A stretch of 64,000 nucleotides of DNA from NCBI GenBank assembly GCA_963662545.2, contig CAXXLL010000002.1, positions 672,001 through 736,000 of the forward strand, given 5' to 3'. Position numbers and translations under genes: made by a program. Of the stretch, positions 12-61,785 are shown one piece after another (within the stretch, counting starts at the first letter, position 1; the number at the start of each line of letters is the position of its first letter). The notes below the pieces were generated by a model. It searched no databases. It was not told the origin of the DNA and was given only the letters and a program-made list of their open reading frames with translations. The DNA comes from Gammaproteobacteria bacterium (GTDB taxonomy: Bacteria; Pseudomonadota; Gammaproteobacteria; Ga0077536).

Positions 12-317
12 TGAAAGCTTTGGGTCGGTAGCTGCCGAGCCACCGCAGCGCAGCACAGCTAGAGATTACGTCTGCAATGCGCTCGGAAGCGGTCGTCTCG
101 CAGCTTTCAGTGGAGCGTTAGCTGAACAGGACGGGTCACGGCCGAGGCTGTGTGAAAACTCAAAAATACGATGACGGAAGTAAAATTTTTCCCACCAGCA
201 CAGTAATTAAGCACCTCGAAAAGGGATCGGCATTCCAATTAGAGTCAATTTCGAGTGTAGTTCCCCCACTTTTGAAAAACGAAAATAGTTTTCACACAGC
301 CTCGGCCATAAGCGGGC
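12..317 (+). repeat. Three-box array repeat R1 (MITE in box 3)
   Basis: GGGTCGGTAGCTGCC...GATTACGTCTGCAATGCGCTCGGAAGCGGTC...CACGGCC[MITE]GGCCATAAGCGGGC. Confidence 0.9.
144..303. mobile_element. 160-bp MITE with IS1182-type TIRs
   Basis: TIR GAGGCTGTGTGAAAACT / AGTTTTCACACAGCCTC, GGCC duplicated on both sides. Confidence 0.9.
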
Positions 318-2088: not shown

Positions 2089-2393
2089 TTTCCGCTCACC
2101 GCCCATTTCCTGCCTCCTCGCGGCAGTGCAGCATCGCTCCAGATTAAGTCTGCAATACGCTCCATAGCGGTCGTCCGGTAGCGTTCGGGGCGCGACCCTG
2201 ACTCGCGGCTGCAGTCGGCCGAGGCTGTGTCAAAAGTATTTTCGAATTTTGAAAGTGGGAGAAGTTTAGCCCGATTCGTCTACCTTAGGCGGTGCGTTCC
2301 CTTAATCAATCGTGCATAACAACCTAAGTGGGGAAAATTTTCACGGCGGGCTCCATTTTTCGACTTTTGACACAGCCTCGGCCACAACCGGAC
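2089..2393 (+). repeat. Three-box array repeat R2 (MITE in box 3)
   Basis: CTCGCGGCAGTGCAGCATCGCTCCAGATTAAGTCTGCAATACGCTCCATAGCGGTC; box 1 degenerate. Confidence 0.9.
2221..2379. mobile_element. 159-bp MITE with IS1182-type TIRs
   Basis: TIR GAGGCTGTGTCAAAAGT / ACTTTTGACACAGCCTC, GGCC duplication. Confidence 0.9.
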
Positions 2394-5034: not shown

Positions 5035-5300
5035 GATGGCCGCAATGGGTCCAGGCTGTCCGAAAACTAATTTCGATTTTGGAAAGTGGGGTATGCGTTA
5101 TCCAATTTGATCAATTTGCGCAGTGTGGTCCCTAATTTATCTGCTATGGGGACAACAAGTGGGGAAACTTTTCGTCGCGTAACGATTTTTCGGAGTTTTC
5201 GGACAGCCTGGGTCGTCAGCGGCCTCATCGCCGCGTTGCACCACTACTAAACGTTACGTCTGCAATCCTCTCAATAGCGGTCGTGCGGCAGTGTTCAGCG
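5035..5300 (+). repeat. Three-box array repeat R3 (MITE in box 1; box 3 replaced by IS91 fragment)
   Basis: GATGGCCGCAATGGGTC[MITE]GGTCGTCAGCGGCC...TTACGTCTGCAATCCTCTCAATAGCGGTC. Confidence 0.9.
5052..5210. mobile_element. 159-bp MITE with IS1182-type TIRs
   Basis: TIR CAGGCTGTCCGAAAACT / AGTTTTCGGACAGCCTG, GGTC duplication; near-identical to 23270-23428. Confidence 0.92.
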
Positions 5301-5304
5301 GCGA

Positions 5305-5771
5305 CTGAAGACCTAACGCCTCTTGAACGCCGAGCAGCGATGAATTGGGCGCAGCGCCTGAAGCGGGTATTCAACATCGACGTCGAGACCTGCAATAGCT
5401 GTGGCGGGCAGGTCAAGATCATCGCGTGCATCGAGGATCCTGTGGTAATCGAGAAGATTCTCACCCATATCGAGCGCAAAGAAACTTCAACAGGCGCCTC
5501 GCGTTTGCCACCGTCTCGGGGGCCGCCGCAGGCCAGTTTGTTCGCCTAATACACGGACAACCGTGCGAGCAACACTGGCAGCTGCGATACCGACGAAGCG
5601 GCAGGGTCGCTGTCGAGCCGAGGGTCGAAGAGCCCAAAAATTAGCACCTAAGTGTGAGATTCTCCGGGCTCGGCCAGCCGACACCGCCTGCAAGCGCGCG
5701 TTGACGGCTGTGCGAGCACCTGCGGACACTCGATGAAGTTGCGGAAAAGGGCGTTTGTTCGTCTTATACGC
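5305..5771 (+). pseudogene. IS91/ISCR transposase 3' fragment with oriIS-like end
   Basis: MNWAQRLKRVFNIDVETC..CGGQVKIIACIEDP..RGPP; ends GAAAAGGGCGTTTGTTCGTCTTATAC. Confidence 0.85.
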
Positions 5772-9088: not shown

Positions 9089-10920
9089 GAGGTCTGCAAA
9101 GGGTCCAGGCTGTCCATAAACTCACTTTGCGGAGCACTTGACGGCTCATCCGGGCTGTTTGGTAGCGGCGTCATCACGATGCGCTGATTCTGCGCGTCCA
9201 ACAGCGTTTGAGAAACTCGACGCCAAAGTGGCGAAGGACATTCGCCGCCGCGGTCTATCCAACACCCGGAGGATGTTTCGGGAAAAAGGCGGGTTCCTAT
9301 GACTGTATCGCTTCTATGAGTGGCGCAACCCCGAGTATCGCCATCGCCCGTTTCATGTTGTACGCCAGCACGTGCAAACTCATCTCCGTACCCACGTTCT
9401 TCAGCGTTTTCATTTGGAAGTGTGTCGACCCCATCCAGGATTTCAACGTGCCGAAGGGATGTTCGACGGTCTGTCGTCGAACGCGCATGCGCGCGGGCTC
9501 TTTGTCCAACCTTGCTTCAACCGCTTCGAGCACGGCTTCGTGCTCCCAGCGGCTGACGCGTCGTTCTTTCCCCGTCGTGCACTTGCCTTTGAGCGCACAT
9601 GAACCACACGTCGATGCCCAGTAACGGTAGATTGTTAATCCGTCTTGGTGTGTTTCCGTGCGGCGCGTCAGTCGCTCTCCCGCCGGACATTCGTATTCGT
9701 CATCATCGGGCTTATAAATGAAATCCCGTTTGCCGAAGAGGCCCTTCGCCAGATTGCCCGAGGTCTGGGGTTTCGGCAGATAAGTCGTGACCCCCGCTTC
9801 ATCACACGCCAGGCTCTCCTCGCTCCTGTAGTAACCCCGGTCCGCGACAACCTCCAGGTGCTCAACACCGAGTGCTTCCTTCGCTTGCTTTGCCATGGCG
9901 GCGAGCGCCGCTCGGTCATGACCCACGTTCGTCACCTCGTGCGTCACGATCATATGATGTTTAGCGTCAACCGCCGCCTGTACGTTGTAGCCCACCATCC
10001 CCGTACCGCGCCCGCTGGTCGCCATCGAGCGGGCGTCTGGATCAGTCAGTGAGATCTGTTGGCCCGGTGCCTCAAGCATCCGGGCTTCCAACTTTTTTAG
10101 GCGCGCCATCTCCTCTTTCAGTCGGCTGATTTTATCCGCCAGTCGCTCCGTTTTGTCCTTCGCAACCGCTGCTTCCTGACGGTCAGCACTCGCCATCTGA
10201 CCCAGATACCGCTCAATGCTCTCGTCAATCTGCGCCAACCGACGCTTCAGCTTCGCCTTGGTGAAGTTCCGCTCCCGGTTGTTCACCGCCTTGAACTTGC
10301 TGCCATCAATCGCTACAAATGCCTCCGAGAATAATTCCAGCTTCCGGCACAGCATCACAAACTCCCGGCACACCAGACGAATGGCGACACCGTTGTCCTT
10401 CCTGAAATCCGCGATGGTTCTAAAGTCAGGCGCTAAGCGACCCGTCAGCCACATCAACTCCACATTGCGCTGCGCTTCACGCGCCAGCCGTCGCGATGAC
10501 TGAACTCGATTCAGGTAGCCGTATACGTAAAGTTTTAAAAGGGTTCTCGGATCGAAGCCCGGCCGACCCGCGGCCTTGGCCTCCGACTGGAAACCTAGAC
10601 CGGAAATATCCAGCTCGTCGATGAATACATCAATCACGCGCACCGCACTGTCTTCGCCGATGTAATCATCCAGTCGCTCTGGAAACAGCGTCGCTTGGTA
10701 GCGATCTTCGCCTTCAATGAATCCACTCATCAGACGATTCCTTGCGCGAAAGGTCGATTATAGATTCATGGGAGTTTTCGGACAGCCTGGGTCGTAAGCC
10801 GCCCGCTCGCGGCAGTGCAGCACTGCTAGAGGTTAGGTCTGGGATACCCTCGTAAGCGGCCATTCCCTTCTCATAAAAAGCATCGCAGCGCTTGACTTCG
10901 GCTCGCGGCTAAGAGCGGTC
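9089..10920 (+). repeat. Three-box array repeat R4 (split by IS1182-A in box 1)
   Basis: GAGGTCTGCAAAGGGTC[IS]GGTCGTAAGCCGCC..GCAGTGCAGCACTGC..AAGCGGCC..GGCTCGCGGCTAAGAGCGGTC. Confidence 0.9.
9106..10789 (-). mobile_element. IS1182-family element A (transposase 9297-10730)
   Basis: 477-aa DDE transposase (IDGSK, ADRGY, VEHPFG); TIR CAGGCTGTCC.AAACT; GGTC duplication. Confidence 0.95.
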
Positions 10921-13016: not shown

Positions 13017-13150
13017 GTGGCCGCTTAGGGTCGTCGGCGGCCTCCTCGCGGCACTGCAGCACTGTTTTAGATTGCGTCTGCTATTCCCTCCATAGCGGTC
13101 GTCCAATAGCGTTCAGCGGAACGTTTACAGAGCACTTCAGCTTACAGCCG
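13017..13150 (+). repeat. Three-box array repeat R5
   Basis: GGCCGCTTAGGGTCGTCGGCGGCC..GCACTGCAGCACTG..GTCTGCTATTCCCTCCATAGCGGTC. Confidence 0.92.
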
Positions 13151-13362
13151 AGGCTTTTCTTGCAACGCTCGACATTCCGATCTCGGCACCGAGCCTAGGC
13201 GGACCCGAAACGTTGGTGACGTGCCCTGCCATCACTTCGCACGCGGGACTGTCGATAGCAGCGCGCGAACGCCTAGGTGTCAGCAACGCTTTGATCCGCT
13301 GCTCGACGGGTTTGGAGGACGCTGATGAGCTGATTGCTGATTTCGCCCAAGCCCTCGGTTGA
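13147..13362 (+). pseudogene. Cys/Met PLP lyase (MetB/MetC type), 3' fragment starting in box 3 of R5
   Basis: Own translation: AEAFLATLDIPISAPSLGGPETLVTCPAITSH...LIRCSTGLEDADELIADFAQALG*. Confidence 0.85.
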
Positions 13363-15159: not shown

Positions 15160-16992
15160 GATGTCCGCTGTGGGTCCAGAGTGTGTGAAAACTCTGCATC
15201 AGATAAGATCACTCTTTCGGTCCTGGGGAGTCGTTGATGAGCGGGTTCATTGAAGGCGCGGACCGCCGCCAAACAACGCTGTTTCCCGAGTGTCTGGACG
15301 ATTATGTCGCTGAGGAGAGTGCGGTGCGGGTCATCGATGTGTTCGTCGATGAGTTGGATCTGTCAGGTCTGAGTTTCAGAACCGATGCGCATGAGACGGG
15401 TCGACCGGGGTATCACCCGGCGACGATGCTGAAGCTCTATATCTACGGTTACCTGAACCGGGTTCAATCGAGCCGTCGCCTGGAACGGGAGGCGCAGCGG
15501 AACGTGGAACTGATGTGGCTGACGGGTCGTCTGGCGCCTGATTTCAAGACCATTGCCGATTTCCGCAAAGATAACGGTGACGCCATTCGTCTGGTATGCC
15601 GGGAGTTCGTGATGCTGTGCCGTAAGCTGCAGCTGTTTTCGGAAGCCTTCGTGGCGATAGATGGCAGCAAGTTCAAAGCGGTAAACAACCGTGACCGGAA
15701 CTTCACGAAGGCGAAGCTGAAACGTCGGTTGCAGCAGATTGACGAGAGCGTTGAGCGGTACCTGGCGGAAATTGCAAGTGCCGACCGCCAGGAGCGTGCG
15801 GTGTCAGGTGACAAGTCGCAGCGTTTGAAGGACAAGATCGAGGTACTGAAGGAAGAGATAGGCCGCCTAAAAAAGCTCGAGGTACGGCTCGAGGAGACGC
15901 CGGACCATCAGGTCTCACTGACGGACCCGGACGCGCGCTCGATGGCGACGAGCGGCCGTGGCAGCGGCATGGTGGGGTACAACGTGCAGACGGCGGTCGA
16001 CACGAAGAGTCATCTGATTGTGGCACATGAAGTGACGAACGTAGGTCATGACCGGGCGCAACTGTCGAACATGTCGGAGAAAGCCAAAGAGGCGCTGGAT
16101 AAGAAGGAGTTGACCGTCGTTGCGGATCGCGGGTACTTCAGTGGCGAAGAGATCTTGGCGTGCGCTAAAGCCGGCATCACGACCTATCTGCCGAAACCGC
16201 AGACCTCGGGTAACCAGGCGAAGGGCTTGTTTGGCAAGCGCGACTTCATTTACCAACCCGAAGAGGATGCGTATGAATGCCCGGCCGGTGAGCGACTGAT
16301 TTACCGGTTCACCCGAGTGGAGAAAGGCAAGCAGATCCGGCGCTACTGGAGTTCGGCGTGTCCCCGCTGCCCGATCAAATCTAAATGCACAACGGGTCGA
16401 TACCGGCGCGTCAGCCGTTGGGAACATGAAGCGGTTGTTGAAGCGGTGCAGGCGCGATTGGATCGTGAACCTGACCCTATGCGTGTCCGCCGAGAGACGG
16501 TCGAGCATCCATTTGGCACGATCAAATCCTGGATGGGTTCGACCCACTTCCAGATGCGCACGCTGAAACACGTTGGTACGGAAATGAGTCTGCACGTGCT
16601 CGCTTACAACATGAAACGCGTGATGAATCTACTGGGTGTCGCTACGCTCATCGAAGCGATGACGGCATGAGACCCTCTGTGGCCTCGAAAACTCCCTGAT
16701 CCACGGCTTCACTGCCGGCTTCTGGGGCCGTTCTAAGGAATGTTCCATTAACTAACCGATCGCATTGGACCGCGAGCGCGGCCGTCGTAACCGCGCCGCG
16801 TTGCGTCTGACGAGGAGTTCTCGACGTGATTCCTCTTCATTCCGAGTTTTCACACACTCTGGGTCGGTAGCTGCCTGATCACCGCGGCGCAACGCTGCTC
16901 TAGTTTACGTCTACAATGCGCTCGGAAGCGGTCATCGAGTTGCTTTAAGCGTTAAGTCGAGAGGGTACGACGGCTCTCGGCCAAGTGTGGGC
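15160..16992 (+). repeat. Three-box array repeat R6 (split by IS1182-B)
   Basis: GATGTCCGCTGTGGGTC[IS]GGTCGGTAGCTGCC..GTCTACAATGCGCTCGGAAGCGGTC..GACGGCTCTCGGCC. Confidence 0.9.
15177..16861 (+). mobile_element. IS1182-family element B, copy 1 (transposase 15237-16670)
   Basis: TIR CAGAGTGTGTGAAAACT, 1685 bp, GGTC duplication. Confidence 0.95.
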
Positions 16993-21310: not shown

Positions 21311-21455
21311 GAGGACCACTTTGGGTCGTCAGCGGCCGAATCGCGGCAGCGGATCACCGCCCTAGATTACGTCTGCAGTGCGCTCCATAGCAGTCGTCGA
21401 GTAACGTTCACCGACGCGTTAACCGATGACGACGGCAGTCGGCCAATAACCGATA
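21311..21455 (+). repeat. Three-box array repeat R8
   Basis: GACCACTTTGGGTCGTCAGCGGCC..CTAGATTACGTCTGCAGTGCGCTCCATAGCAGTC..GACGGCAGTCGGCC. Confidence 0.92.
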
Positions 21456-22942: not shown

Positions 22943-23137
22943 GACTTCGTCGTGCGCGAACACATATGCGTAACGTCCGTCAAAGTATTCGTGATTTTGG
23001 GAGCTTTGCGGTGCAGTATATTTAACTCGCCCAACGTGACCTACCCGCATTCTTTGGTCCAGTTTTAGAGTAAGTTTACACAGCTTGATTCAGGTTTGGC
23101 ACGTCGTCCTCGGGAAGCGCGGTTTCGGGATCCGGCA

Positions 23138-23236
23138 GCCCGTGAGATGCTGGGAGGGATTTACGAGTGGTTTATAGAAGGCTTTGACACCAAAGACCTG
23201 CGAGAGGCGAAGGTGCTGTTAGAGGAATTGGAATAA
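23138..23236 (+). pseudogene. C-terminal scrap of adenylate/guanylate cyclase-AAA-TPR type protein
   Basis: Own translation: AREMLGGIYEWFIEGFDTKDLREAKVLLEELE*. Confidence 0.75.
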
Positions 23237-23252
23237 AGCAACCACGTTTGCC

Positions 23253-23560
23253 TATGTCTCCTTAGGGTCTAGGCTGTCCGAAAACTAATTTCGATTTTGG
23301 AAAGTGGGGTATGCGTTATCCAATTTGATCAATTTGCGCAGTGTGGTCCCTAATTTATCTGCTATGGGGACAACAAGTGGGGAAACTTTTCGTCGCGTAA
23401 CGATTTTTCGGAGTTTTCGGACAGCCTGGGTCGTCAGCGGCCTGATCGCGGCAGTGCAGCGCTAGAGACGGTTACGTCTGCAATGCGCTCGTAAGCGTTC
23501 GTCCAGCAGCGTTCGGCGGACCGTTAACCAAGGAGTTCGGCTCCCAGCCAACAGCGGTCA
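23253..23560 (+). repeat. Three-box array repeat R9 (MITE in box 1)
   Basis: ATGTCTCCTTAGGGTC[MITE]GGTCGTCAGCGGCCTGATCGCGGCAGTGCAGC..GTCTGCAATGCGCTC..CAGCCAACAGCGGTC. Confidence 0.92.
23270..23428. mobile_element. 159-bp MITE with IS1182-type TIRs
   Basis: Near-identical to 5052-5210; GGTC duplication. Confidence 0.92.
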
Positions 23561-23626
23561 TCGGGAACGGGCAAAAGGCAGGATCTGGCCTCGCAGGCGC
23601 GGATACCAGTCGCGTGAGCCCCTGTA

Positions 23627-25555
23627 TCAGGATTGATCGGTCGTGGCCATCGTCGGAAATCGCACGGTCGCGCCTGGCGTGACCTTGTGCAAATCAAGCC
23701 CCGGGTTGTACTGCCGGAACAGCCATACGGGCACATCGTATTGCCTCAGCGACAGTATCCATATTGACTCGCCCGATCGAATCGTGTGTTCCGTCACACC
23801 AGTTATCACGTTTTTGCGGAAGAAGCTGTCCTGCTGTGTACGGTGATACGCCTCGCGAAGAACCTCGAAGCCTTGCACGTCGACATCGTTGAATTCGAGC
23901 CTGATGCGCTGACCAACCTCCATAGGAGTGCGGAATTTAAGTCCGTTGATGTCACGCAGCCGTTGCGTGCGAATTCCGAGCCAATCCGCATAATGACCAA
24001 GAGTCTCGAGTGGCTGTATTTCGATCGTGTTGTCCTCGGCAACGCTGTAGTCGCTGGGGTCGGACAACAACGAGGTCTGTATCGTCTCCATGAGGCTCGA
24101 CACTAGGTCGCTCACCAGAGCCGTGGGATCAAGCTCCTCGACCTCGGGTTCTTCAGGCCCTGCCTTGGCGGCGCTGGCAACGACAACTGGCTCGGGGGCC
24201 TCAGCCGTCGCTGGCGCGCTCGCGACAGGCGCCGGACCTGCACCGGGCAATCGCAGCCGTTGCCCCCCCCTGATTCGGTGCTGACTGCTAAGTCCGTTCA
24301 GCGCGACGAGCGTCGAGACGCGCGTGCTGTATCTCTCAGCGATTTCCGAGAGAGTGTCGCCACGCGCGACCGTATGAAAGAGATCGGGTAACTGCGCGTT
24401 GTGCCAGCTGTCGGCAGGAACACTGGCAACGAGCTCATCGATCGACCCATTGATCATTCTCCCGGGCATGAGCACATTGAAACCGCGCGGCACGTGTTTG
24501 CTGCCTTGCCAGACTGTCGGCTGCAGGGCCGGATTGTGTTTCTTTATCTGTGTTTGAGTGACGCCGAGGGCCTGTGCAAGGTCGCTCGCCGGCACGAACC
24601 CCGGAAGCTTCGCCTCAGCATAAACAGTCGGCGTGTCACGAACGATGCCGGGAAAATAGTTGTCTGAATTCTGATCGACTTCTTTCGCCGCAAGAAACTC
24701 TGCGTAGAAATTGCGGGATGCAAAACCGAAAGTGCGACCATTGTAGTTGCGTAGTATGTCTACGTAGGCCGTGTCGCCGTGACGACGCATGGCGCGACGG
24801 ACGCCAGACAAGCCATGGTTGTAGGCCGTGATTGCCATCGGCCAGTTGCCGGTAATCGAATAGTTGTAAGCCAGGAGCTTGCCTGCGCCGCGGGTTGCCT
24901 CGAACGGGTCATTTCGGTCGTCGATAACGTGGTTGACGCGCATGTATCGACGCGCCGTACTGCGCGTGAACTGCCAGATGCCGGAGGCGCCGACGTGCGA
25001 TCGTGCGTCGGGATTGTAGGAAGACTCAACGTGCGGCAGCGCCGCAAGTTCGACCGGAACACCCAGCGCGGTGAATTCGGACTCAATGAAATCACGCCAG
25101 CGACCGGAGCGCTTGAGACCCTCCTGGAATCGGTCCGAGAGACCTTGTTGATAACGAATGCGGCCCGCAGCGGCCTTGAGTGTCGCGTTGTCGACATCAG
25201 CCGGCCATAGCGCGAGTATGCGCGCTTCTTCCGCAGTCAGGTTGTCACCTATGCCGTTTGCCAGTGATCGCAGCACCGCGGTGAGGGCATCGCGGCGCTT
25301 ATCAACCCGTCGGTTGCGCTCGCGGCGGCTGAGATTCGTCGGTATATCGATGCGCCCGTAGATGACGCCGAGATGACGATTATCGTGCAGCACTCCCTCG
25401 TCACTGTCATACCGCGCGAATATCGAGACCCAGAAATTGACGTCGGGCTGTAATTCCGGGGGAAAAGGGAAGGTCTCTCCTGCATTGGAAGACGCGCCGG
25501 GAAGCACTAGGAGTAGTAGTAGCCCCGCGAGCCAATATCGACTTTTTCTTGCCAT
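23627..25555 (-). CDS. Lytic transglycosylase with LysM domains (MltD-like)
   Basis: LPHVESSY, GASGIWQF, AYNHG, HTVARGDTLSEIA; start codon uncertain. Confidence 0.9.
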   Translation of the reverse strand: MARKSRYWLAGLLLLLVLPGASSNAGETFPFPPELQPDVNFWVSIFARYDSDEGVLHDNRHLGVIYGRIDIPTNLSRRERNRRVDKRRDALTAVLRSLANGIGDNLTAEEARILALWPADVDNATLKAAAGRIRYQQGLSDRFQEGLKRSGRWRDFIESEFTALGVPVELAALPHVESSYNPDARSHVGASGIWQFTRSTARRYMRVNHVIDDRNDPFEATRGAGKLLAYNYSITGNWPMAITAYNHGLSGVRRAMRRHGDTAYVDILRNYNGRTFGFASRNFYAEFLAAKEVDQNSDNYFPGIVRDTPTVYAEAKLPGFVPASDLAQALGVTQTQIKKHNPALQPTVWQGSKHVPRGFNVLMPGRMINGSIDELVASVPADSWHNAQLPDLFHTVARGDTLSEIAERYSTRVSTLVALNGLSSQHRIRGGQRLRLPGAGPAPVASAPATAEAPEPVVVASAAKAGPEEPEVEELDPTALVSDLVSSLMETIQTSLLSDPSDYSVAEDNTIEIQPLETLGHYADWLGIRTQRLRDINGLKFRTPMEVGQRIRLEFNDVDVQGFEVLREAYHRTQQDSFFRKNVITGVTEHTIRSGESIWILSLRQYDVPVWLFRQYNPGLDLHKVTPGATVRFPTMATTDQS

Positions 25556-25795
25556 TTTTTTCAACAGAATATCTGACTCTCGTGGAAAAGTTGTTGTCCT
25601 CCCCAGATTGTCCGCCTCCACTGCACGAAATGCTGCCATGGTATATGCCAGACGACCTAGCAGGCCAAGCCGAATAGCAGTTCGCCAATGCGAATGACAC
25701 CACTCAGGTTAACAAATGCGCTCCAGCCGACACTTGACTGCGTCCTTCCTTCGCTACCGATCCGGTGGGTGAAATACGCCTAGTAATCTGTCCTC

Positions 25796-25941
25796 GATGA
25801 CCGCTTCGGGTCGTCAGCGGCCTTGTCGCGGCAGCGCATCACTGTTCTAGATTAGGTCTGTAATGCTCTCCATAGCGGTCGGCGAGTCGCCTTAATGGCG
25901 GCTACGGATGAGCGGTTCGGCTCTAAGCCAAGAGGACGACA
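25796..25941 (+). repeat. Three-box array repeat R10
   Basis: GATGACCGCTTCGGGTCGTCAGCGGCC..CTAGATTAGGTCTGTAATGCTCTCCATAGCGGTC..TTCGGCTCTAAGCC. Confidence 0.92.
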
Positions 25942-25951
25942 TTCCTTGATA

Positions 25952-27648
25952 GTGTCCGTCCATAAACAGGCATTTTCTTCGATGGGCACGGAGAAATCGA
26001 GGTGTTGAAAGTAGGTTGTTGGAGCGGTAGCGGCGGTTCGGTGGGGGTCGAAGGGCTCTTCGAGCGTAATTGTGAGTACGTTCGCCGGCCGCAGAGCGCT
26101 GCAACCCAAAGTCGCCCGTTCGACGATATCGAGGAGGTCAGTTAGTGCGAGTGAACGTCGCTATTCGAGTTGATAGCGCGCGAGCAGGCTGAGGTTGTAG
26201 GCGACCACAGAAGACCACACGTAGGCTTCGAAGTGCGGCAGGCTCTTCCAGGTGCAACGTGCCAATCCGTATGCACGCTTCAGGCAGGAGATACCGGCCT
26301 CGATGCCGGCGCGGAAGTTGCGCAAGCGTCGATAGACCCACTGACTCTTGACCATGTCGGCGATCGCGAGCCCGCGCTTCTTGTGGAAGGCAACGTCTTC
26401 GATGCCTTCTGCTTTCGCCGCCCGGAGATTGTCGAGGCTCGCATAGCCGCCATCGGCGGCGACCTGTCGTGGCATCGTCCCGTAGTGTGTTCGATGCCGT
26501 TCGAGCATCGGCATGAAGCGCTGACTATCGACCGGATTGCCTCGCTCGATGACCACGTCGAGGATGAGGCCACTGCGCCCCGAAGCCAGATTGATTTTGT
26601 GTCCGTACTGAACGTCGCGCGCACCCTTTATGATGATGTCGGTATGCGGCTCGAACAAGCTCACGCACTTCTCGCTCGCGGGGACCTTCTCACCGCCGAA
26701 CACCCGCCGCTCAGTTTGCGAAATCACCTGCAGAACAAGTGTTTCGTAGTGCGCTACCTGCGCTAGCCAGTCCGGCAGTTCAACGCCGGTGACGCCCGGG
26801 CTCAGCAGCTGCTCACGTACCCTCGCTACCGCTTCCAAGGTTGAACGCGTCGCCCCAATCAAATCGCGATACAGACGTTGGCGTTGCTTCGCACCACGCG
26901 CATACCACAGCGCCCGCGCACGCTTCTTCGCCAATCGAGTGTGGTTCACGAAGCACAACTCCGGCGCGCCAGGCAACTCGCGCGCCTGTGCGAGCAGACG
27001 AACCACAACACGCACGCCATCCCACAGCAGATGACTGTCGCTCGGCGCGTGGATGGCACTGTCCGTTACCGTGCTATCAATCCGTACACGCTGTGCCGGC
27101 TCAATGCGCGTCTCTTTCGCCGTCGCCAGCAGGGCGCGATGAATAGACTCCCACGTCGATACCTGGATCGCCGAGACCACCCGCTGTAAGGCAGACTTCT
27201 TCGGACGTTCATTACCCGGCAACCGGGCGAAGGCCTGAAAGCTCGCCGAGTCCTGCAGGTGAAAGGCCAGCTCCTCGTAACTCAATTGCCGGTGCTGCTT
27301 GAGCACCGCGCAGCGCAGCACCGACTCCGCCGACAGTCCGCGTCGACCGGTGGGCTTCAAACCCCGCCGACACAGATCGTTCATGACCGGCGTGAGGACC
27401 TTGGGGTGAGCATCGAGCCACTCGGACATGCCCTGCAGCTCTCGCCCCAGGTCATGGTCAGCAAACAGCTCGTATATACTCGCTTGGGCCGTGCGTTTCT
27501 GACGCATTCCCCCTCCTGTGGTGTCGATGATTGTGTGGAAAATCAGAGGTTTGAAGTTCCATTAGATCACGACCCACCGGAGGTTTCGATCCCTTAAGCG
27601 ACAAATTTTCCTTTTTATTTCAACCGCATCGCGTTTAGGGATGCACAC
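25952..27648 (-). mobile_element. ISNCY/IS5-like element (transposase 26161-27507)
   Basis: RIDSTV, ADGGY, RAGIEAGIS; TIR GTGTCCGTCCATAAAC / GTTTAGGGATGCACAC; TTGATA duplicated. Confidence 0.9.
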
Positions 27649-27705
27649 TTGATAGCGGTCGTACGGTTATCCTATCCCTTCAATCAGCAACGGAAGGTAT
27701 TGACT

Positions 27706-28242
27706 ATGAACTGGAACGTTGCGGGAGCGATTGGTGAAGTAGTCGGGGCGGCCGCAGTCGTAATTTCCGTCATGTACCTGGCGGTTCAGATTCGCAAACA
27801 GACCGAGGAATACAGATTATCTGCTACACGCGAAATTGCCGCTCAATTCATGGACGGTTTGAAGGTTCCCATAGCCGATGAGGGTCTGTGCGAGATATAT
27901 CTGAAAGGTATCCAAAATTACAAATCGCTGCCGGAAGCAAAACGGTTAAGGATCAGTCTACTATTTCAGCATCAGATAAGAGTTATGGAGCTGCAATACT
28001 TTCACAGTAAAAAAAGGAATATTGATGCTTCATTTTTGGACTCAATAAATCGCACTTTATCCGAAATTTTGAGCTTTCCCGGCGTACAACAATGGTGGGA
28101 AACGACACACTACAGCTTTGAAGACGGGTTTCAACAACACATAGAACATTTGCTCTCGGAATCCAAAACCAAGTCGTATCCAAGTACATTCAGTACAAAG
28201 AAGAAGGCGCAAACTAATAGCGTGGGCGAGTTCGACACTTGA
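27706..28242 (+). CDS. Hypothetical membrane-anchored protein (MNW..AIGE..AV..YLA.QIR type)
   Basis: N-terminal TM helix; AT-richer than neighbours; resembles 60302-60823. Confidence 0.8.
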   Translation: MNWNVAGAIGEVVGAAAVVISVMYLAVQIRKQTEEYRLSATREIAAQFMDGLKVPIADEGLCEIYLKGIQNYKSLPEAKRLRISLLFQHQIRVMELQYFHSKKRNIDASFLDSINRTLSEILSFPGVQQWWETTHYSFEDGFQQHIEHLLSESKTKSYPSTFSTKKKAQTNSVGEFDT

Positions 28243-28304
28243 TTGCGACCCAGGTCAAAACGCCTTTTATCGAATGAAAAGGATGCTGAGTAACGCAGCG
28301 CAAC

Positions 28305-30138
28305 AAGTCCGCTGTGGGTCCAGAGTGTGTGAAAACTCTGCATCAGATAAGATCACTCTTTCGGTCCTGGGGAGTCGTTGATGAGCGGGTTCATTGAAGG
28401 CGCGGACCGCCGCCAAACAACGCTGTTTCCCGAGTGTCTGGACGATTATGTCGCTGAGGAGAGTGCGGTGCGGGTCATCGATGTGTTCGTCGATGAGTTG
28501 GATCTGTCAGGTCTGAGTTTCAGAACCGATGCGCATGAGACGGGTCGACCGGGGTATCACCCGGCGACGATGCTGAAGCTCTATATCTACGGTTACCTGA
28601 ACCGGGTTCAATCGAGCCGTCGCCTGGAACGGGAGGCGCAGCGGAACGTGGAACTGATGTGGCTGACGGGTCGTCTGGCGCCTGATTTCAAGACCATTGC
28701 CGATTTCCGCAAAGATAACGGTGACGCCATTCGTCTGGTATGCCGGGAGTTCGTGATGCTGTGCCGTAAGCTGCAGCTGTTTTCGGAAGCCTTCGTGGCG
28801 ATAGATGGCAGCAAGTTCAAAGCGGTAAACAACCGTGACCGGAACTTCACGAAGGCGAAGCTGAAACGTCGGTTGCAGCAGATTGACGAGAGCGTTGAGC
28901 GGTACCTGGCGGAAATTGCAAGTGCCGACCGCCAGGAGCGTGCGGTGTCAGGTGACAAGTCGCAGCGTTTGAAGGACAAGATCGAGGTACTGAAGGAAGA
29001 GATAGGCCGCCTAAAAAAGCTCGAGGTACGGCTCGAGGAGACGCCGGACCATCAGGTCTCACTGACGGACCCGGACGCGCGCTCGATGGCGACGAGCGGC
29101 CGTGGCAGCGGCATGGTGGGGTACAACGTGCAGACGGCGGTCGACACGAAGAGTCATCTGATTGTGGCACATGAAGTGACGAACGTAGGTCATGACCGGG
29201 CGCAACTGTCGAACATGTCGGAGAAAGCCAAAGAGGCGCTGGATAAGAAGGAGTTGACCGTCGTTGCGGATCGCGGGTACTTCAGTGGCGAAGAGATCTT
29301 GGCGTGCGCTAAAGCCGGCATCACGACCTATCTGCCGAAACCGCAGACCTCGGGTAACCAGGCGAAGGGCTTGTTTGGCAAGCGCGACTTCATTTACCAA
29401 CCCGAAGAGGATGCGTATGAATGCCCGGCCGGTGAGCGACTGATTTACCGGTTCACCCGAGTGGAGAAAGGCAAGCAGATCCGGCGCTACTGGAGTTCGG
29501 CGTGTCCCCGCTGCCCGATCAAATCTAAATGCACAACGGGTCGATACCGGCGCGTCAGCCGTTGGGAACATGAAGCGGTTGTTGAAGCGGTGCAGGCGCG
29601 ATTGGATCGTGAACCTGACCCTATGCGTGTCCGCCGAGAGACGGTCGAGCATCCATTTGGCACGATCAAATCCTGGATGGGTTCGACCCACTTCCAGATG
29701 CGCACGCTGAAACACGTTGGTACGGAAATGAGTCTGCACGTGCTCGCTTACAACATGAAACGCGTGATGAATCTACTGGGTGTCGCTACGCTCATCGAAG
29801 CGATGACGGCATGAGACCCTCTGTGGCCTCGAAAACTCCCTGATCCACGGCTTCACTGCCGGCTTCTGGGGCCGTTCTAAGGAATGTTCCATTAACTAAC
29901 CGATCGCATTGGACCGCGAGCGCGGCCGTCGTAACCGCGCCGCGTTGCGTCTGACGAGGAGTTCTCGACGTGATTCCTCTTCATTCCGAGTTTTCACACA
30001 CTCTGGGTCGATAGCCGCCTCATCGGGGCAGGGCAGCACCACCAAGCGACACGTCTGGATTACTTTCGAAAGCGGCCATCCTGCTTCTGTTGGCATCACC
30101 TCTGAGGGTGACTTCGGCTCTCGGCCAAGTGCCGTCGT
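28305..30138 (+). repeat. Three-box array repeat R11 (split by IS1182-B)
   Basis: AAGTCCGCTGTGGGTC[IS]GGTCGATAGCCGCC..GTCTGGATTACTTTCGAAAGCGGCC..TTCGGCTCTCGGCC. Confidence 0.9.
28321..30005 (+). mobile_element. IS1182-family element B, copy 2
   Basis: Same protein and TIRs as copy 1; GGTC duplication. Confidence 0.95.
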
Positions 30139-30926: not shown

Positions 30927-30995
30927 ACCGGAGATAGCGCCGTATAAAACGGTGTGGCGGCCAACCTTTGACTGCGCCCTTCCTTCGATGCCGCT

Positions 30996-31137
30996 GATGT
31001 CCATTATTGGGTCGTTAGCCGCCGCCTCGCGGCAGTGCAGCACAGCTCTAGATTACGTCTGCAATGCGCTCCATAGCGGTCGTCCAGTAGCGTTCGGTGG
31101 CGTGAACATCACGAGGGGCGGCTCTCGGCCGGCGGAC
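30996..31137 (+). repeat. Three-box array repeat R12
   Basis: GGGTCGTTAGCCGCC..GCAGTGCAGCACAGCTCTAGATTACGTCTGCAATGCGCTCCATAGCGGTC..GGCGGCTCTCGGCC. Confidence 0.92.
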
Positions 31138-33674: not shown

Positions 33675-33990
33675 GATGTCCGCTCAGGGTCCAGTCCGCT
33701 CTCCAGTGTGAAAACTCAAAAATACGACGACGAAATAAAAATATTCCCCACCAGCATAGTTGTTATGCCCCTCGAATAGGGATCGGCATTTCAATTAGAT
33801 CCAATTTCGAGGGTAGTTCCCCCACTTTTGAAAAATGAAAATAGTTTTCACACACTCTGGGTCGTCAGCCGCCTTATCGCGGCAGTGCAGCACTGCTCTA
33901 GATTACGTCTGGAGTTCCCTCGATAGCGGTCATCCCGACGATTCCAATGCAGTGCTGAGGGAGGGGGCGGCTCACGGCCACAAGCGGCCA
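33675..33990 (+). repeat. Three-box array repeat R13 (MITE in box 1)
   Basis: GATGTCCGCTCAGGGTC[MITE]GGTCGTCAGCCGCC..GCAGTGCAGCACTGCTCTAGATTACGTC..GGCTCACGGCCACAAGCGGCC. Confidence 0.92.
33692..33859. mobile_element. MITE related to 144-303, left TIR damaged
   Basis: GTGTGAAAACTCAAAAATACGA.. / AGTTTTCACACACTCTG; GGTC duplication. Confidence 0.85.
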
Positions 33991-36907: not shown

Positions 36908-37033
36908 GATATCCGGAATGGGTCAGCGGCCTGATCGCGGCAGTGGAGGAGTGCTCTAGATTATGTCTGCAGTACCCTCCATAGCGGTCGCGCAGTAGCG
37001 TTCAACAGAACGTTAATGGAGCTGTTCGGCTCC
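36908..37033 (+). repeat. Three-box array repeat R14
   Basis: GGGTCAGCGGCCTGATCGCGGCAGTG..CTCTAGATTATGTCTGCAGTACCCTCCATAGCGGTC. Confidence 0.9.
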
Positions 37034-37162
37034 TATTACCTTGACGGAAATGTAATACAGAAGATTTCACTTAGCAGCCCCGATCAGCTGTCCAATCGAT
37101 GGGGTCCACCTCTCTGGCGGATACGGTGTTAATGGGCACCTATTGTCGGTCACAATAAGGCG

Positions 37163-38055: not shown

Positions 38056-38141
38056 ACGGCTGGAGTGGGTCCTTTCCGGCCTCCTCGCGGCACCGGAGCA
38101 CTGATTAGGGTTAAGTCTGCAATTCCCTCAGAAGCGGGCAT
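38056..38141 (+). repeat. Array repeat R15 (boxes 1-2 only)
   Basis: GGGTCCTTTCCGGCCTCCTCGCGGCACCGGAGCACTG..GTCTGCAATTCCCTCAGAAGCGGGC. Confidence 0.8.
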
Positions 38142-38777: not shown

Positions 38778-38859
38778 AGCGTGCCCTCCAACATTGGGTA
38801 GACGGTCATGATACTGCGGCGGGAGTGGCGATAAAAGAGAACGCGCTGGGGCCCATACC

Positions 38860-40136
38860 ATGGGGTCGTATCCGGCCCCATCGCGGCACTGCAGCACTGC
38901 TCTAGTGTGCTGTCCCGCAAAGAAGTTTCGAAAGTCGGGCGAGTTTTTTCAAGATTGAATCGGCGGTTGCGGTCCATGCGAAAGGCACGGGGTTGGCGTT
39001 GTGCTGAGCAATATAGTGCTCGATACACGCAATGAGTTCTTTCACCTTTCGGAATGAACCGCGCTTGATAGCGCGCTGACTGATGAGACCAAACCAACGT
39101 TCGACCTGGTTGAGCCATGCAGCGTAGGTTGGCGTAAAGTGGACGTGAAATCGAGGTCGGCGAGCGAACCAGGCACGGACTTTCGGATGCTTGTGCGTGC
39201 CATAGTTGTCCATCACCAGATGCACATCCAGGTCGGCCGGAACGTTTTTCTCGAGGTGCTTGAGGAAGGACAGAAATTCCTGATGACGATGCCGCGCTTT
39301 GCACTGCCCGATGACGGTGCCGTTGGCGATATCGAGCGCCGCGAACAACGTGGTCGTGCCGTGCCGGAAGTAATCATGCGTGACGCCCTCGACATAACCG
39401 AGCCCCATCGGCAGAACCGGCTGACTGCGTTCCAGTGCCTGGATTTGGGTTTTTTCATCCACACACAAAACCAGCGCATTATCGGGTGGATTCAGGTACA
39501 AGCCGACGATATCGCGCACTTTCTCGACCAAGAACAGGTCGGTAGAGAGCTTGAACGTGCGGCTGCGATGCGGCTGGATCCCGAACAACGTGAAATAGCG
39601 ATGAACCGTACTCTTCGAGGGCTCGCTCACGCGTGCAAACGAACGGGTGCTCCAATGGGTCGCGTCCTCCGGTTGCTCGCGCAGCGATCAAGCGCGCAAC
39701 CTCATCGTCGTCATACGTCCGCCGACGATGACCCGGCGGCAGGTCATACAATCCGGCGACCCCGTTGGCGATATACCGGCGACACCAATTCGTGACCGTC
39801 GGATTGGACACATCGAGCTTTCTGGCAAGCGCGCTGTTAGACAGCCCATCGGCTGCCATCACGACGATCTTTGCGCGCCGTGCCAGCGCATGCGGCAGAC
39901 TGCGCGACCTCGCGTAACTGTTGAGGACCTCGTGTCCCTCCTCGCTCAGTTTAACCGTAAAGGATCTGGGTCGACCGCTAACCATCGCCTTGCTCCTGCA
40001 TGACACAATAGCCGATCTGATCATCACGACTTATGAAAGTTCATCGTGGGACAGCACACTAGATTACGTCTGCAATCCACTCAAGAGCGGTCGTCGAGTT
40101 GGTATCTTCGCCTTGCCGTGGGTGCACTGCGGCAGT
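38860..40136 (+). repeat. Three-box array repeat R16 (split by IS630 at CTAG)
   Basis: GGGTCGTATCCGGCC..GCACTGCAGCACTGCTCTA[IS]TAGATTACGTCTGCAATCCACTCAAGAGCGGTC. Confidence 0.9.
38905..40059 (-). mobile_element. IS630-family element, transposase frameshifted near 39670
   Basis: TIR GTGTGCTGTCCC; TA duplication; VDEKTQIQAL, MDNYGTH, WLNQVERWF. Confidence 0.92.
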
Positions 40137-40203
40137 CCTCACGCTAAGTTGGTGCATCCCCCGCCGATCGATTCCGAACAGGGTAACCCGGCTCGGCGAT
40201 GAC

Positions 40204-40917: not shown

Positions 40918-41050
40918 GTTACTACCTCCTCATGCCGCTGGGGTGAACGTGCGCGGTCAGCGGAACGAGCGCGCGGCTCTACTCGAGTATATAGGCAAGA
41001 AAAGCGGGGTTGTAAGTACAGAAATTTTGGGGTCAGGGTAAAAACCCATT

Positions 41051-42878
41051 AGGACCGCTTCGGGTCCAGAGTGTGTGAAAACTCGGAATGAAGAGGAATC
41101 ACGTCGAGAACTCCTCGTCAGACGCAACGCGGCGCGGTTACGACGGCCGCGCTCGCGGTCCAATGCGATCGGTTAGTTAATGGAACATTCCTTAGAACGG
41201 CCCCAGAAGCCGGCAGTGAAGCCGTGGATCAGGGAGTTTTCGAGGCCACAGAGGGTCTCATGCCGTCATCGCTTCGATGAGCGTAGCGACACCCAGTAGA
41301 TTCATCACGCGTTTCATGTTGTAAGCGAGCACGTGCAGACTCATTTCCGTACCAACGTGTTTCAGCGTGCGCATCTGGAAGTGGGTCGAACCCATCCAGG
41401 ATTTGATCGTGCCAAATGGATGCTCGACCGTCTCTCGGCGGACACGCATAGGGTCAGGTTCACGATCCAATCGCGCCTGCACCGCTTCAACAACCGCTTC
41501 ATGTTCCCAACGGCTGACGCGCCGGTATCGACCCGTTGTGCATTTAGATTTGATCGGGCAGCGGGGACACGCCGAACTCCAGTAGCGCCGGATCTGCTTG
41601 CCTTTCTCCACTCGGGTGAACCGGTAAATCAGTCGCTCACCGGCCGGGCATTCATACGCATCCTCTTCGGGTTGGTAAATGAAGTCGCGCTTGCCAAACA
41701 AGCCCTTCGCCTGGTTACCCGAGGTCTGCGGTTTCGGCAGATAGGTCGTGATGCCGGCTTTAGCGCACGCCAAGATCTCTTCGCCACTGAAGTACCCGCG
41801 ATCCGCAACGACGGTCAACTCCTTCTTATCCAGCGCCTCTTTGGCTTTCTCCGACATGTTCGACAGTTGCGCCCGGTCATGACCTACGTTCGTCACTTCA
41901 TGTGCCACAATCAGATGACTCTTCGTGTCGACCGCCGTCTGCACGTTGTACCCCACCATGCCGCTGCCACGGCCGCTCGTCGCCATCGAGCGCGCGTCCG
42001 GGTCCGTCAGTGAGACCTGATGGTCCGGCGTCTCCTCGAGCCGTACCTCGAGCTTTTTTAGGCGGCCTATCTCTTCCTTCAGTACCTCGATCTTGTCCTT
42101 CAAACGCTGCGACTTGTCACCTGACACCGCACGCTCCTGGCGGTCGGCACTTGCAATTTCCGCCAGGTACCGCTCAACGCTCTCGTCAATCTGCTGCAAC
42201 CGACGTTTCAGCTTCGCCTTCGTGAAGTTCCGGTCACGGTTGTTTACCGCTTTGAACTTGCTGCCATCTATCGCCACGAAGGCTTCCGAAAACAGCTGCA
42301 GCTTACGGCACAGCATCACGAACTCCCGGCATACCAGACGAATGGCGTCACCGTTATCTTTGCGGAAATCGGCAATGGTCTTGAAATCAGGCGCCAGACG
42401 ACCCGTCAGCCACATCAGTTCCACGTTCCGCTGCGCCTCCCGTTCCAGGCGACGGCTCGATTGAACCCGGTTCAGGTAACCGTAGATATAGAGCTTCAGC
42501 ATCGTCGCCGGGTGATACCCCGGTCGACCCGTCTCATGCGCATCGGTTCTGAAACTCAGACCTGACAGATCCAACTCATCGACGAACACATCGATGACCC
42601 GCACCGCACTCTCCTCAGCGACATAATCGTCCAGACACTCGGGAAACAGCGTTGTTTGGCGGCGGTCCGCGCCTTCAATGAACCCGCTCATCAACGACTC
42701 CCCAGGACCGAAAGAGTGATCTTATCTGATGCAGAGTTTTCACACACTCTGGGTCGTCAGCGGTCCCCTAGTCGCAGTGCAGCAATGTTAATCGTCACGT
42801 CTGCAATACACTCATAAGCGGTCTTCTAGTAGCGTTCGACGGCGGGATTATTGTGGACGGCGGCTCTCAGCCGAGGAC
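41051..42878 (+). repeat. Three-box array repeat R17 (split by IS1182-B, inverted)
   Basis: AGGACCGCTTCGGGTC[IS]GGTCGTCAGCGGTC..GTCTGCAATACACTCATAAGCGGTC..GGCGGCTCTCAGCC. Confidence 0.9.
41067..42751 (-). mobile_element. IS1182-family element B, copy 3
   Basis: Same protein and TIRs, opposite orientation; GGTC duplication. Confidence 0.95.
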
Positions 42879-44569: not shown

Positions 44570-44714
44570 GATGATCGCAAAGTGGTCGTCAGCGGCCTCG
44601 TCGCGGCATCGCCGCACTGCTAAGGTTTACGTCAGCAATGCGCTTGAAAGCGGTCGTTCGGCGGCGTTCAGTGGGGCGTTAAGCGAGGACTTCGGCTCCC
44701 GGGCAAGAGCGGTC
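44570..44714 (+). repeat. Three-box array repeat R18
   Basis: GGTCGTCAGCGGCC..GTCAGCAATGCGCTTGAAAGCGGTC..TTCGGCTCCCGGGCAAGAGCGGTC. Confidence 0.92.
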
Positions 44715-53918: not shown

Positions 53919-54061
53919 AAGTCCGCTTCGGGTCGTCAGCCGCCTGATCGCGGCAGTGCAGCACTGATTAGGATTACGTCTACAATGCTCTTCATAGCGG
54001 TCGTCGAGTTGCTTCAAGCGTCGTACAAACGCACGACCTAGCCTCGCGGCCAGATGCGGTC
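53919..54061 (+). repeat. Three-box array repeat R19
   Basis: AAGTCCGCTTCGGGTCGTCAGCCGCCTGATCGCGGCAGTGCAGCACTG..CATAGCGGTC..CGCGGCCAGATGCGGTC. Confidence 0.92.
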
Positions 54062-60109: not shown

Positions 60110-60254
60110 AATGTCGCCTTCGGGTCGTCAGCGGCCTGATCGCGCCAGCGCAATACCGCTCTAGATTACGTCTGCGATGCTCTCGGAAGCGGTCGTCGAA
60201 CTGCATTAAACGCCTTGCGAAAGCGCGACTATGGCTGGTGGGCATGCGCCGTCG
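60110..60254 (+). repeat. Three-box array repeat R20
   Basis: AATGTCGCCTTCGGGTCGTCAGCGGCCTGATCGCG..CTCTAGATTACGTCTGCGATGCTCTCGGAAGCGGTC. Confidence 0.92.
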
Positions 60255-60823: not shown

Positions 60824-60982
60824 AAAGGCGCACAAACCCCGCGCCTGGCTATAGCTTTCATTTCGTCGGCGATGACAAGTGCCGACCGCCAGGAGCGATG
60901 CGGTGACCCTCGGTGTCCCTGATCCACGGCAGGGTGACTGAAGGAAAGTAGGCCTATGCCTATCACTCTTTCGGTCCCGTTG

Positions 60983-61085
60983 ATGGGTCGTCAGCGGCCT
61001 AATCACGGCAATGCAGCACCGCTCTAAATTGCGTCTGCAATGCGCTCCATAACGGTCGTCCTATTGTTTTAAGCGTCGCGCTCGA
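60983..61085 (+). repeat. Array repeat R21 (boxes 1-2)
   Basis: GGGTCGTCAGCGGCCTAATCACGGCAATGCAGCACCGCTCTAAATTGCGTCTGCAATGCGCTCCATAACGGTC. Confidence 0.9.
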
Positions 61086-61108
61086 AGCCAGTCCTCGGTA
61101 CCTGCAGT

Positions 61109-61609: not shown

Positions 61610-61655
61610 GCCGAACAATTTAGCCAATGCGTTGCGTCGATCGGTTGAAACCGCA
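61610..61655 (+). mobile_element. IS30-family right-end remnant
   Basis: AEQFSQCVASIG* then AACCGCA, abutting GTC of box 1 in R22. Confidence 0.65.
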
Positions 61656-61785
61656 GTCGATAGCCGCCGAATTGCGGTAGCGCAGCACTATTTTAGATTA
61701 CGTCTGCAATCCTCTCGTAAGTGGTCGTCCAATAGCGTTAGGGAGCGCGACTATGAAGAGCGGCAACAGTCGGCCATTTGCAGAC
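61656..61785 (+). repeat. Three-box array repeat R22
   Basis: GTCGATAGCCGCC..TAGATTACGTCTGCAATCCTCTCGTAAGTGGTC..CAGTCGGCCATTTGCAGAC. Confidence 0.88.

Follow-up and report, generated by a model that had tools for sequence, protein, structure and literature searches.

The question raised by this locus is what kind of site is formed by the 146 bases at positions 25796-25941 of a 64-kb window from a gammaproteobacterium (the window being the whole stretch of DNA that was analysed, 64,000 nucleotides), where three palindromic boxes had been predicted to recur at a fixed period as binding sites for one dimeric protein. We find that these bases belong to an intergenic repeat of constrained length that has 22 copies, all in the same direction, and we tentatively regard them as one copy of a composite intergenic repeat that is specific to its lineage. 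Seventeen repeat copies were aligned (alignment A1), and the profile built from A1 was used to search the window. The search returned 22 copies, 18 of them near full length and 4 partial, all on the plus strand and with E values from 1.3e-36 to 2.3e-7; the copy in question (hereafter the named copy) was matched at 25798-25934. Repeat finding in the window gives families of 15-20 copies. The mean pairwise identity of the copies in A1 is 0.62, with a range of 0.48-0.77. On the left, the array extends beyond the window, and it may do so on the right as well. Besides the named copy, the array comprises the following copies, with "profile" marking those entered on a profile match.

12..146, plus strand: repeat copy, box 3 broken by a miniature IS at 144-303 (profile)
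2111..2223, plus strand: repeat copy without box 1, box 3 broken by a miniature IS at 2221-2379 (profile)
5035..5335, plus strand: repeat copy, box 1 split by a miniature IS at 5052-5210 (profile)
9089..10920, plus strand: repeat copy, box 1 split by an IS1182-family IS at about 9106-10789, transposase 9297-10730 on the minus strand (profile)
13018..13152, plus strand: repeat copy (profile)
15160..16991, plus strand: repeat copy, box 1 split by an IS1182-family IS at 15177-16861, transposase 15234-16670 on the plus strand, flanked by a GGTC duplication (profile)
21314..21453, plus strand: repeat copy (profile)
23253..23560, plus strand: repeat copy, box 1 split by a miniature IS at 23270-23428 (profile)
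28304..30136, plus strand: repeat copy, box 1 split by an IS1182-family IS at about 28321-30005 (profile)
31001..31132, plus strand: repeat copy with the best profile score (profile)
33675..33987, plus strand: repeat copy, box 1 split by a miniature IS at 33692-33859, with the best-preserved box 3 (profile)
36922..37034, plus strand: repeat copy (profile)
38077..38141, plus strand: partial repeat copy (profile)
38858..38906, plus strand: partial repeat copy adjoining an IS630-like gene (profile)
40052..40137, plus strand: partial repeat copy, 3' part (profile)
41050..42878, plus strand: repeat copy, box 1 split by an IS1182-family IS at about 41067-42751, transposase 41258-42694 on the minus strand (profile)
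44581..44714, plus strand: repeat copy (profile)
53921..54061, plus strand: repeat copy (profile)
60112..60253, plus strand: repeat copy (profile)
60981..61090, plus strand: repeat copy with a diverged 3' end (profile)
61655..61785, plus strand: repeat copy (profile)

The uniform strand of these copies is real, since the same search reports minus-strand matches with another profile. Under random orientation, the chance of finding 22 of 22 copies on one strand is about 5e-7 by our own arithmetic. All but one of the copies (21 of 22) lie outside family-supported genes. The family-supported ORFs of the window are split between the strands, with 18 on the plus strand and 21 on the minus strand, indicating that gene direction does not explain the orientation of the copies. 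The sequences flanking the copies are unique, save for a 35-nt module upstream of 3 of 18 copies. This module, about 35-43 nt in length, lies at 4999-5041, 25726-25768, and 30960-31002, in each case just upstream of a repeat copy, and at 25726-25768 it is about 30 nt away from box 1 of the named copy. When the 64 kb was searched with a profile of box 1, no isolated boxes were found apart from the composite repeat.

The named copy is built from the following parts.

25796..25941, plus strand: the named copy, a full-length repeat of about 146 nt (profile match, E 6.7e-34)
25799..25822, plus strand: box 1, the left-end palindrome, with 6-nt arms and a 12-nt loop with a central GGTC (exact string)
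25831..25845, plus strand: small linker-1 palindrome, imperfect in the named copy (helix 2, 76.5% of cells paired across A1)
25856..25880, plus strand: box 2, strongly conserved and weakly palindromic (arms of 1.70 bits each, T/T mismatch in 17/17)
25916..25939, plus strand: box 3, degenerate in the named copy and without a right arm (an inverted box 1 in good copies)

Box 1 is present at 25799-25822 exactly as the original prediction quoted it. The strings quoted for boxes 2 and 3 of this stretch, however, belong to other copies: the left arm of box 2 in the named copy is GTCTGT, one base off the quoted GTCTGC, and the right arm of box 3 at 25934-25939 is GGACGA, such that there is no dyad there. 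The nine right-arm positions that had been cited from other copies (44591/44649/44708, 33867/33925/33983, and 10797/10855/10914) all read AGC(G/C)G(C/T)C, and the differences between them are 58/59, 58/58, and 58/59. The proposed fixed spacing holds throughout the alignment as well. All 17 A1 copies have boxes 1 and 2 set 58 nt apart, and the step from box 2 to the column of box 3 measures 59 nt in 16 copies and 58 nt in the other. Columns 19-150 of A1 contain a single gap column. Linker 2 is as variable in sequence as had been claimed, with a mean pairwise identity of 0.44 compared to 0.73 for columns 19-94, the 5' 76 nt. The palindrome described within linker 1 is exact in 2 of 17 copies and pairs at the overall level given above, but the named copy carries an imperfect version of it.

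We measured the proposed depletion of indels between the boxes against a crude internal control, the five miniature IS copies of the same window, with gap and mismatch counts summed over all pairs. Gap events and mismatches stand at 16:6845 in the repeat and at 16:633 in the miniature IS copies, which suggests that indels are depleted about ten-fold in the repeat. The copies have diverged yet have done so almost without indels, which suggests that their spacing is length-constrained. The bare dyad pattern is less informative: it comprises 8 fixed bases, and by our own arithmetic about 5 occurrences per 64 kb are expected from composition. Because the pattern is expected about that often by chance, the evidence lies in the register that is kept across copies and not in the dyad pattern. 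For the box 1 24-mer with at most 3 mismatches, we observed 5 matches compared to 0.00 expected.

The claim that the arms are better conserved than the linkers applies to the right arm of box 1 and to both arms of box 2, and not to the remaining arms. The information content is 1.74 bits per column for the right arm of box 1 and 1.70 and 1.70 for the arms of box 2, compared to 1.18 for linker 1. The left arm of box 1 has 0.64 bits per column, linker 2 has 0.69, and box 3 has 0.47-0.89, while the box loops have 1.25 and the outside flanks 0.12-0.33. Despite its conservation, box 2 is a poor palindrome, with one arm pair being T/T in 17 of 17 copies and another T/G in 15 of 17. An exact AGCGGYC is found at box 3 in only 4 of 17 copies. 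A well-preserved box 3 is hit by the profile of box 1 on the other strand (33992-33966, minus strand), indicating that the end boxes are inverted copies of one palindrome, with box 3 as the weaker of the two. The unit that recurs three times with a period of 58-59 nt is the one-sided motif AGCGGYC.

These observations bear on the model of the original prediction, in which the repeat resembles a res-like accessory site with three dyad subsites, each bound by a recombinase dimer, that assemble a synapse. Tn3-family res sites hold three resolvase subsites in about 120 bp, and the presence of three boxes in about 140 bp, the fixed spacing of 58-59 nt, the depletion of indels, and the lack of evidence of folding described below are all consistent with such a model. 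A res site, however, is single-copy and lies beside its resolvase gene, whereas the repeat has 22 copies, and no integrase (intI), resolvase, or Y1 transposase/RAYT is present among the 76 window ORFs that were scanned in 64 kb. The idea of three equivalent dyads is not supported by the alignment either: the real palindromes are box 1 and, in some copies, box 3 only, box 2 with its invariant T/T pair is not a dyad, the left arm of box 1 is poorly conserved, and most copies lack the right arm of box 3. In addition, a one-sided AGCGGYC that recurs three times does not fit three symmetric dimer sites. We consider a res-like accessory site improbable.

The original prediction had offered ssDNA or RNA hairpins as an alternative to a protein-binding site, and for these the folding of the repeat is informative. 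As a positive control, we used the attC site that follows aadA1 in plasmid R100. This site folds along its whole length, at z = -4.0 and -3.8, and none of its 200 shuffles does as well. For the named copy, the corresponding z values are -0.22 and -0.84, which 77 and 37 of 200 shuffles equalled or bettered, and DNA folding of ten intact copies on both strands produced z values from -2.2 to +1.4. RNAalifold predicted 4 pairs on the repeat alignment, with no compensatory change. In a five-helix model consisting of the three boxes and two linker hairpins, 65.0% of cells pair compared to 65.1% in shuffled alignments, 280 of 500 shuffles pair at least as well, and the covariation score of 0.128 equals that of the shuffles (0.128). 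We likewise compared individual pairings with shuffled partners, removing the IS by coordinates so that all 17 left arms entered each comparison. Pairing is 63.9% compared to 64.6% for the box 1 hairpin (P 0.79), 44.7% compared to 43.2% for attC-like pairing of both termini (P 0.33), and 61.3% compared to 61.6% for inner pairing of the repeat (P 0.72). Conservation of sequence without fold or covariation favors a DNA site read by a protein over RNA or ssDNA hairpins, contrary to the alternative offered. The palindromy is therefore confined to the consensus. The same lack of covariation would be seen if a mobile element that once folded had left copies that decayed after their insertion, a caveat that also counts against the cassette-junction reading developed below.

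A number of other candidates were also set aside. A structured RNA or ssDNA was rejected given fold z values near zero, pairing equal to shuffles, and no Rfam match; in Rfam 15, the whole window had no match at the gathering score, and two copies searched at E <= 5 had none either. Protein coding was rejected, as stops occur in all six frames across copies and conservation has no 3-base periodicity. No promoter or terminator was predicted inside the repeats within 20000-39999, and no repeat match was found in a plasmid collection searched in distant mode, which speaks against a plasmid origin. A related proposal would make the repeat a decayed MITE with terminal inverted repeats, or else a gene for a structured small RNA. 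The size of the repeat is typical of a MITE and its ends are inverted repeats of about 10-27 nt, but no target duplication flanks the repeat and all copies have a single orientation. The Rfam searches, the 4 pairs of RNAalifold, and the lack of a promoter- or terminator-like site in the repeats of the 20000-39999 interval weigh against the proposal as well. The probability that we assign to this proposal is very small indeed, the smallest of any considered here.

The same tests apply to the possibility that the repeat is a canonical integron attC site and that the window belongs to a sedentary chromosomal integron or to a CALIN, a cluster of attC sites without an integrase. The ends of attC sites are complementary 7-nt motifs, with AAC at one end and GTT at the other. 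No column of A1 is an invariant GTT or AAC; of the 17 copies, 9 have GTT at one A1 column and 5 have it at another, so the repeat has no conserved AAC...GTT ends. The single imperfect hairpin that closes a whole attC site is also lacking in the named copy, whose z values stand against those of the aadA1 attC, as do those of the ten intact copies, and the termini of the repeat pair no better than with shuffled partners. No intI gene was found among the 76 ORFs scanned in the window, whose left end the array overruns; such a gene at the array end is not required for a CALIN. Other features are as one would expect for attC: the array is co-oriented (22 of 22 on the plus strand), with one site per module and many IS, the repeat is near the upper range of attC length, and it has two inverted end sites. 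The sites are 0.7-9.3 kb apart, and some of these gaps exceed the 4 kb limit for clustering of attC sites that is quoted in an excerpt of PMC4889954. All told, we regard a canonical attC array as very unlikely.

Nine of the 22 copies are interrupted, four by full IS1182-family elements and five by miniature derivatives of about 160 nt. The family assignment rests on a match to NF033551 with 466.5 bits against a cut-off of 270. The full elements (15177-16861, 28321-30005, 41067-42751 on the minus strand, and 9106-10789 on the minus strand) are about 1.69 kb long and encode a transposase of 477-478 aa; two stretches of 300 nt and 31 nt that were compared between the copies at 15177-16861 and 28321-30005 are identical. 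The miniature IS (144-303, 2221-2379, 5052-5210, 23270-23428, and 33692-33859) are 159-168 nt in length, have IS1182-type ends, and fall into at least two sequence types. Seven insertions lie in the loop center of box 1 and two in the loop center of box 3, with none in box 2; among the miniature IS, three are in box 1 and two are in box 3. Every insertion is flanked by a 4-nt duplication, either GGTC or GGCC. Since the insertions hit the loops of both boxes, boxes 1 and 3 are one kind of site as far as the IS is concerned.

The transposase alignment was scanned against one genome per species, yielding 78 loci with transposase identities of 57-80% in Nitrospirales, Acidobacteriota, Lysobacterales, Woeseiaceae, Halieaceae, and other Gammaproteobacteria. 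The ends of the IS could be placed in 39 of these loci, and in most of the 39 the IS interrupts the loop of a palindrome like that of boxes 1 and 3, with a 4-nt duplication. The right IS end was not placed in L005 and L017, and L023 and L071 are among the few loci without a clear palindrome in the flanks. The arms of the palindrome change complementarily between genomes, for example in L050 and L051, and in an Acidobacteriota MAG the IS flanks of L042 are the reverse complement of those of L045. We considered long attC-like hairpins around the IS targets of these genomes and rejected them: the median z is -1.26 across 36 loci, which we read as being mostly the short palindrome alone. A few longer hairpins do occur at IS targets, as in L010. 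According to excerpts of PMC5678879, IS1272, a member of the IS1182 family, targets inverted repeats, and other members have been noted to target palindromes.

When the repeat profile was searched against the 78 loci from other genomes, nothing was found at E <= 0.01, which is a further point against the cassette-junction reading. Weak partial matches were seen in L035 (E 0.03) and L037 (E 0.034), the latter sharing box 1, the linker palindrome, and box 2 with the window repeat, but with a 13-nt insertion. Because nothing reached E <= 0.01, kinship with the arrays of other genomes is judged from architecture together with these weak matches. Analogous arrays do exist. The Congregibacter variabilis repeat is about 125 nt long and has three boxes of the same arm type that are about 56 and about 37 nt apart, distances near those of gamma-delta res (about 53 and 35 bp center to center) and in that respect favorable to a res-like site. 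Matches to the C. variabilis profile are on the plus strand in 9 of 9 cases in L064 and in 6 of 6 cases in L062, and in L063 there are 6 on the plus strand and 4 on the minus strand. The minus block of L063 (8969-14045) is located between inverted IS30-like copies at 5567-6727 (plus strand) and 15773-16933 (minus strand), and is the only reversed block in that array, suggesting an IS-mediated inversion. Density is uneven, with 9 matches in the first 13.6 kb of L064 compared to 1 in 21 kb of L065. Most ORFs of the C. variabilis arrays are small and have no Pfam family (13 of 20 in L064, 20 of 31 in L062 and L063), and several ORFs of L064 end within a few bases of the next repeat.

A second such array is present in the Woeseiaceae MAG locus L069 (52-5506), where seven co-oriented repeats of about 70 nt are 340-2893 nt apart, six of them at 340-844 nt, with ORFs of 80-144 aa and of unknown family between them. 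No strong folding of the repeats was detected in the L069 test. An IS110-family transposase gene (132-1214) directly follows the first copy. IS1111-group elements target attC sites, and the position of this gene, together with the cassette-like spacing and small unknown ORFs of the C. variabilis and Woeseiaceae arrays, is in line with the attC reading. Self-BLAST of all loci of at least 8 kb listed five with at least 3 partner segments (L023, L063, L064, L069, and L043); of the two newly listed loci that were looked at, L023 and L069, only L069 holds an array, and no arrays were found in the 6 loci examined by repeat finding. L023, from Nitrospirales, has a dense cluster made up of several families of short repeats, some with units of a 39-nt period, at 16686-19036, near an IS1182-family copy and unrelated to the window repeat. 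In L025, the same palindrome type is single, clustered, and in both orientations. No description of such arrays was found in full-text searches of the literature.

The main rival explanation is that the repeat is a selfish or neutral extragenic repeat of the REP/BIME/REPIN kind, spread in trans by an HUH/RAYT-like single-strand enzyme, with its orientation arising from the strand exposed at the replication fork. We consider this possible, although on the unlikely side. The repeat consists of imperfect palindromes and conserved linkers in intergenic positions, its end boxes are inverted as in REP doublets, and the window holds many extragenic imperfect palindromic units of 20-40 nt (boxes 1 and 3 of 22 copies, 21 of which are extragenic). 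Likewise, the palindrome type is found singly, in clusters, and in both orientations elsewhere (L025 and the flanks of L042 and L045), and the lack of a target duplication around the repeat fits HUH-type insertion. IS that target palindromes or REPs are known, as excerpted from PMC5678879 for IS1272 and the IS1182 family. Weighing against this explanation are the 22 of 22 co-oriented copies and the absence of solitary units, in either orientation, from the 64-kb window. Classical BIMEs occur in both orientations. A mean identity of 62% is also low for an actively spreading family, the density of the C. variabilis repeat is very uneven between L064 and L065, and no Y1 transposase was found among the ORFs scanned in the window and related loci. 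The GC skew of the window gives a replication-strand signal that is too weak to use.

Successive copies of the repeat are separated by 1-5 unrelated genes, with genes on both strands and a mean module size of about 2.9 kb. Among the module genes are those for a transporter, a methyltransferase, a flavocytochrome c sulfide dehydrogenase, a PQQ dehydrogenase, and monooxygenases, as well as a Na/H exchanger, a lytic transglycosylase, SPFH proteins, and a deacetylase. Many transposases are present in the window, of the IS1182, ISNCY, IS3, ISL3, IS630, and ISCR/IS91 types. No cargo in common with the related loci was seen, the best matches among 35 window proteins being only 26-40% identical.

Some further sequence features of the window lie apart from the repeat. 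A perfect 118-nt tandem duplication is present at 50664-50899, inside an ORF for a PD40/WD40 beta-propeller (49259-51097, minus strand); 118 is not divisible by three and a second ORF overlaps at 50568-51242, pointing to either a broken frame or an artefact of assembly. A GC-rich element of about 80-130 nt has three copies (46037-46167, 51908-51995, and 52551-52626) and occurs near a truncated ISCR/IS91-type transposase gene (52689-53387, minus strand; model positions 19-198 of 509). These copies may be the ends of a rolling-circle element. Finally, a pair of 102-nt repeats that are 97% identical (61288-61389 and 61475-61576) is located between two copies of the repeat, 187 nt apart.

Our leading reading, in which we have somewhat less than even confidence, is by analogy with attC arrays: the repeat would be the protein-read junction site of an integron-like, co-oriented array of gene cassettes, without being a canonical attC. 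The ends of the repeat are inverted REP-like palindromes, box 1 on the left and box 3 on the right, with arms of the GnCCGCT/AGCGGnC type and a loop of about 10 nt centered on GGYC. Between them lies an asymmetric conserved core of about 75 nt that contains the degenerate box 2 and the small palindrome, with all inter-box distances fixed, and one copy of the repeat follows each module of 1-5 unrelated accessory genes. What speaks for this reading is the single strand of all copies, their location almost entirely outside family-supported genes, the unrelated genes and many IS between them, their mostly unique flanks, their divergence with hardly any indels, the lack of fold, covariation, and coding signal, the inverted end boxes, the IS insertions at loop centers, and the co-oriented arrays of C. 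variabilis and the Woeseiaceae MAG with their small ORFs. We infer that a protein encoded outside the window would read the thrice-repeated AGCGGYC in a fixed phase and as DNA, and that the site would serve to recombine or insert modules in a specific orientation, which would make the cassettes mobile. The end palindromes can in addition act as hairpin or cruciform targets, which IS1182-family elements exploit.

Several observations temper the cassette-junction reading. No type of recombinase turned up among the 76 window ORFs or in the four related loci that were scanned. The modules are large, multi-gene, and on both strands, unlike typical cassettes with one promoterless gene, and no cassette was seen in two contexts. 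The spacing of the boxes also differs by lineage, as is evident from the C. variabilis distances (56 and about 37 nt) and the 13-nt insertion of L037.

A more far-reaching proposal is that the arrays of the window organism, C. variabilis, and the Woeseiaceae lineage represent a second, non-integron cassette platform in marine and sediment Gammaproteobacteria. Such a platform would consist of co-oriented arrays of accessory modules with multi-palindrome sites of 70-146 nt that have no attC-like fold and would be read as duplex DNA in a fixed helical phase by a putative recombinase, and IS1182- and IS110-family elements would have specialized on these sites. We put this forward as a speculative proposal that is rather unlikely to hold. 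If the repeats are recombination junctions, they would define a cassette-capture system outside the integron paradigm, and one that could move multi-gene modules. Even as a REP/BIME-like repeat, this one would be unusual in its strict co-orientation, its fixed phasing of 58-59 nt, and the way in which a single IS1182 lineage targets one type of palindrome in several phyla. The targeting of palindromes is also useful for the annotation of hypervariable regions and IS insertion sites.

Comparison with known systems places the repeat and its IS separately. The comparison with IS1272 and the IS1182 family (excerpts of PMC5678879) concerns the window IS and not the repeat. Like those elements, the window IS enters palindromes and duplicates the loop center, as in a loop-duplication pathway. 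Unlike IS1272, whose targets are reported in the same excerpts to be alike in structure only, the window IS has a target that is sequence-specific across phyla. As for the repeat, it is similar to Tn3-family res sites in having three boxes in about 140 bp and in keeping their spacing while a linker drifts, but it differs in its many copies, the absence of an adjacent resolvase, its one or two true dyads, and its one-sided motif. With REP, BIME, and REPIN sequences it has in common palindromic units with conserved linkers, intergenic positions, inverted ends, and targeting by IS, but its strict co-orientation, identity of 0.62, and phasing of 58-59 nt set it apart, as does the window's lack of solitary units and of a RAYT. 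The repeat differs from attC in having an asymmetric core and a third box in place of an end-to-end hairpin and AAC/GTT termini, and the array differs from attC arrays in its multi-gene modules on both strands and in having no intI within 64 kb. Nevertheless, like the sites of attC and CALIN arrays, the window sites are co-oriented, follow each module, and are divergent in sequence but constrained in architecture, and they likewise have two inverted end sites each, occupy a hypervariable, IS-rich region, and act as landing pads for IS.
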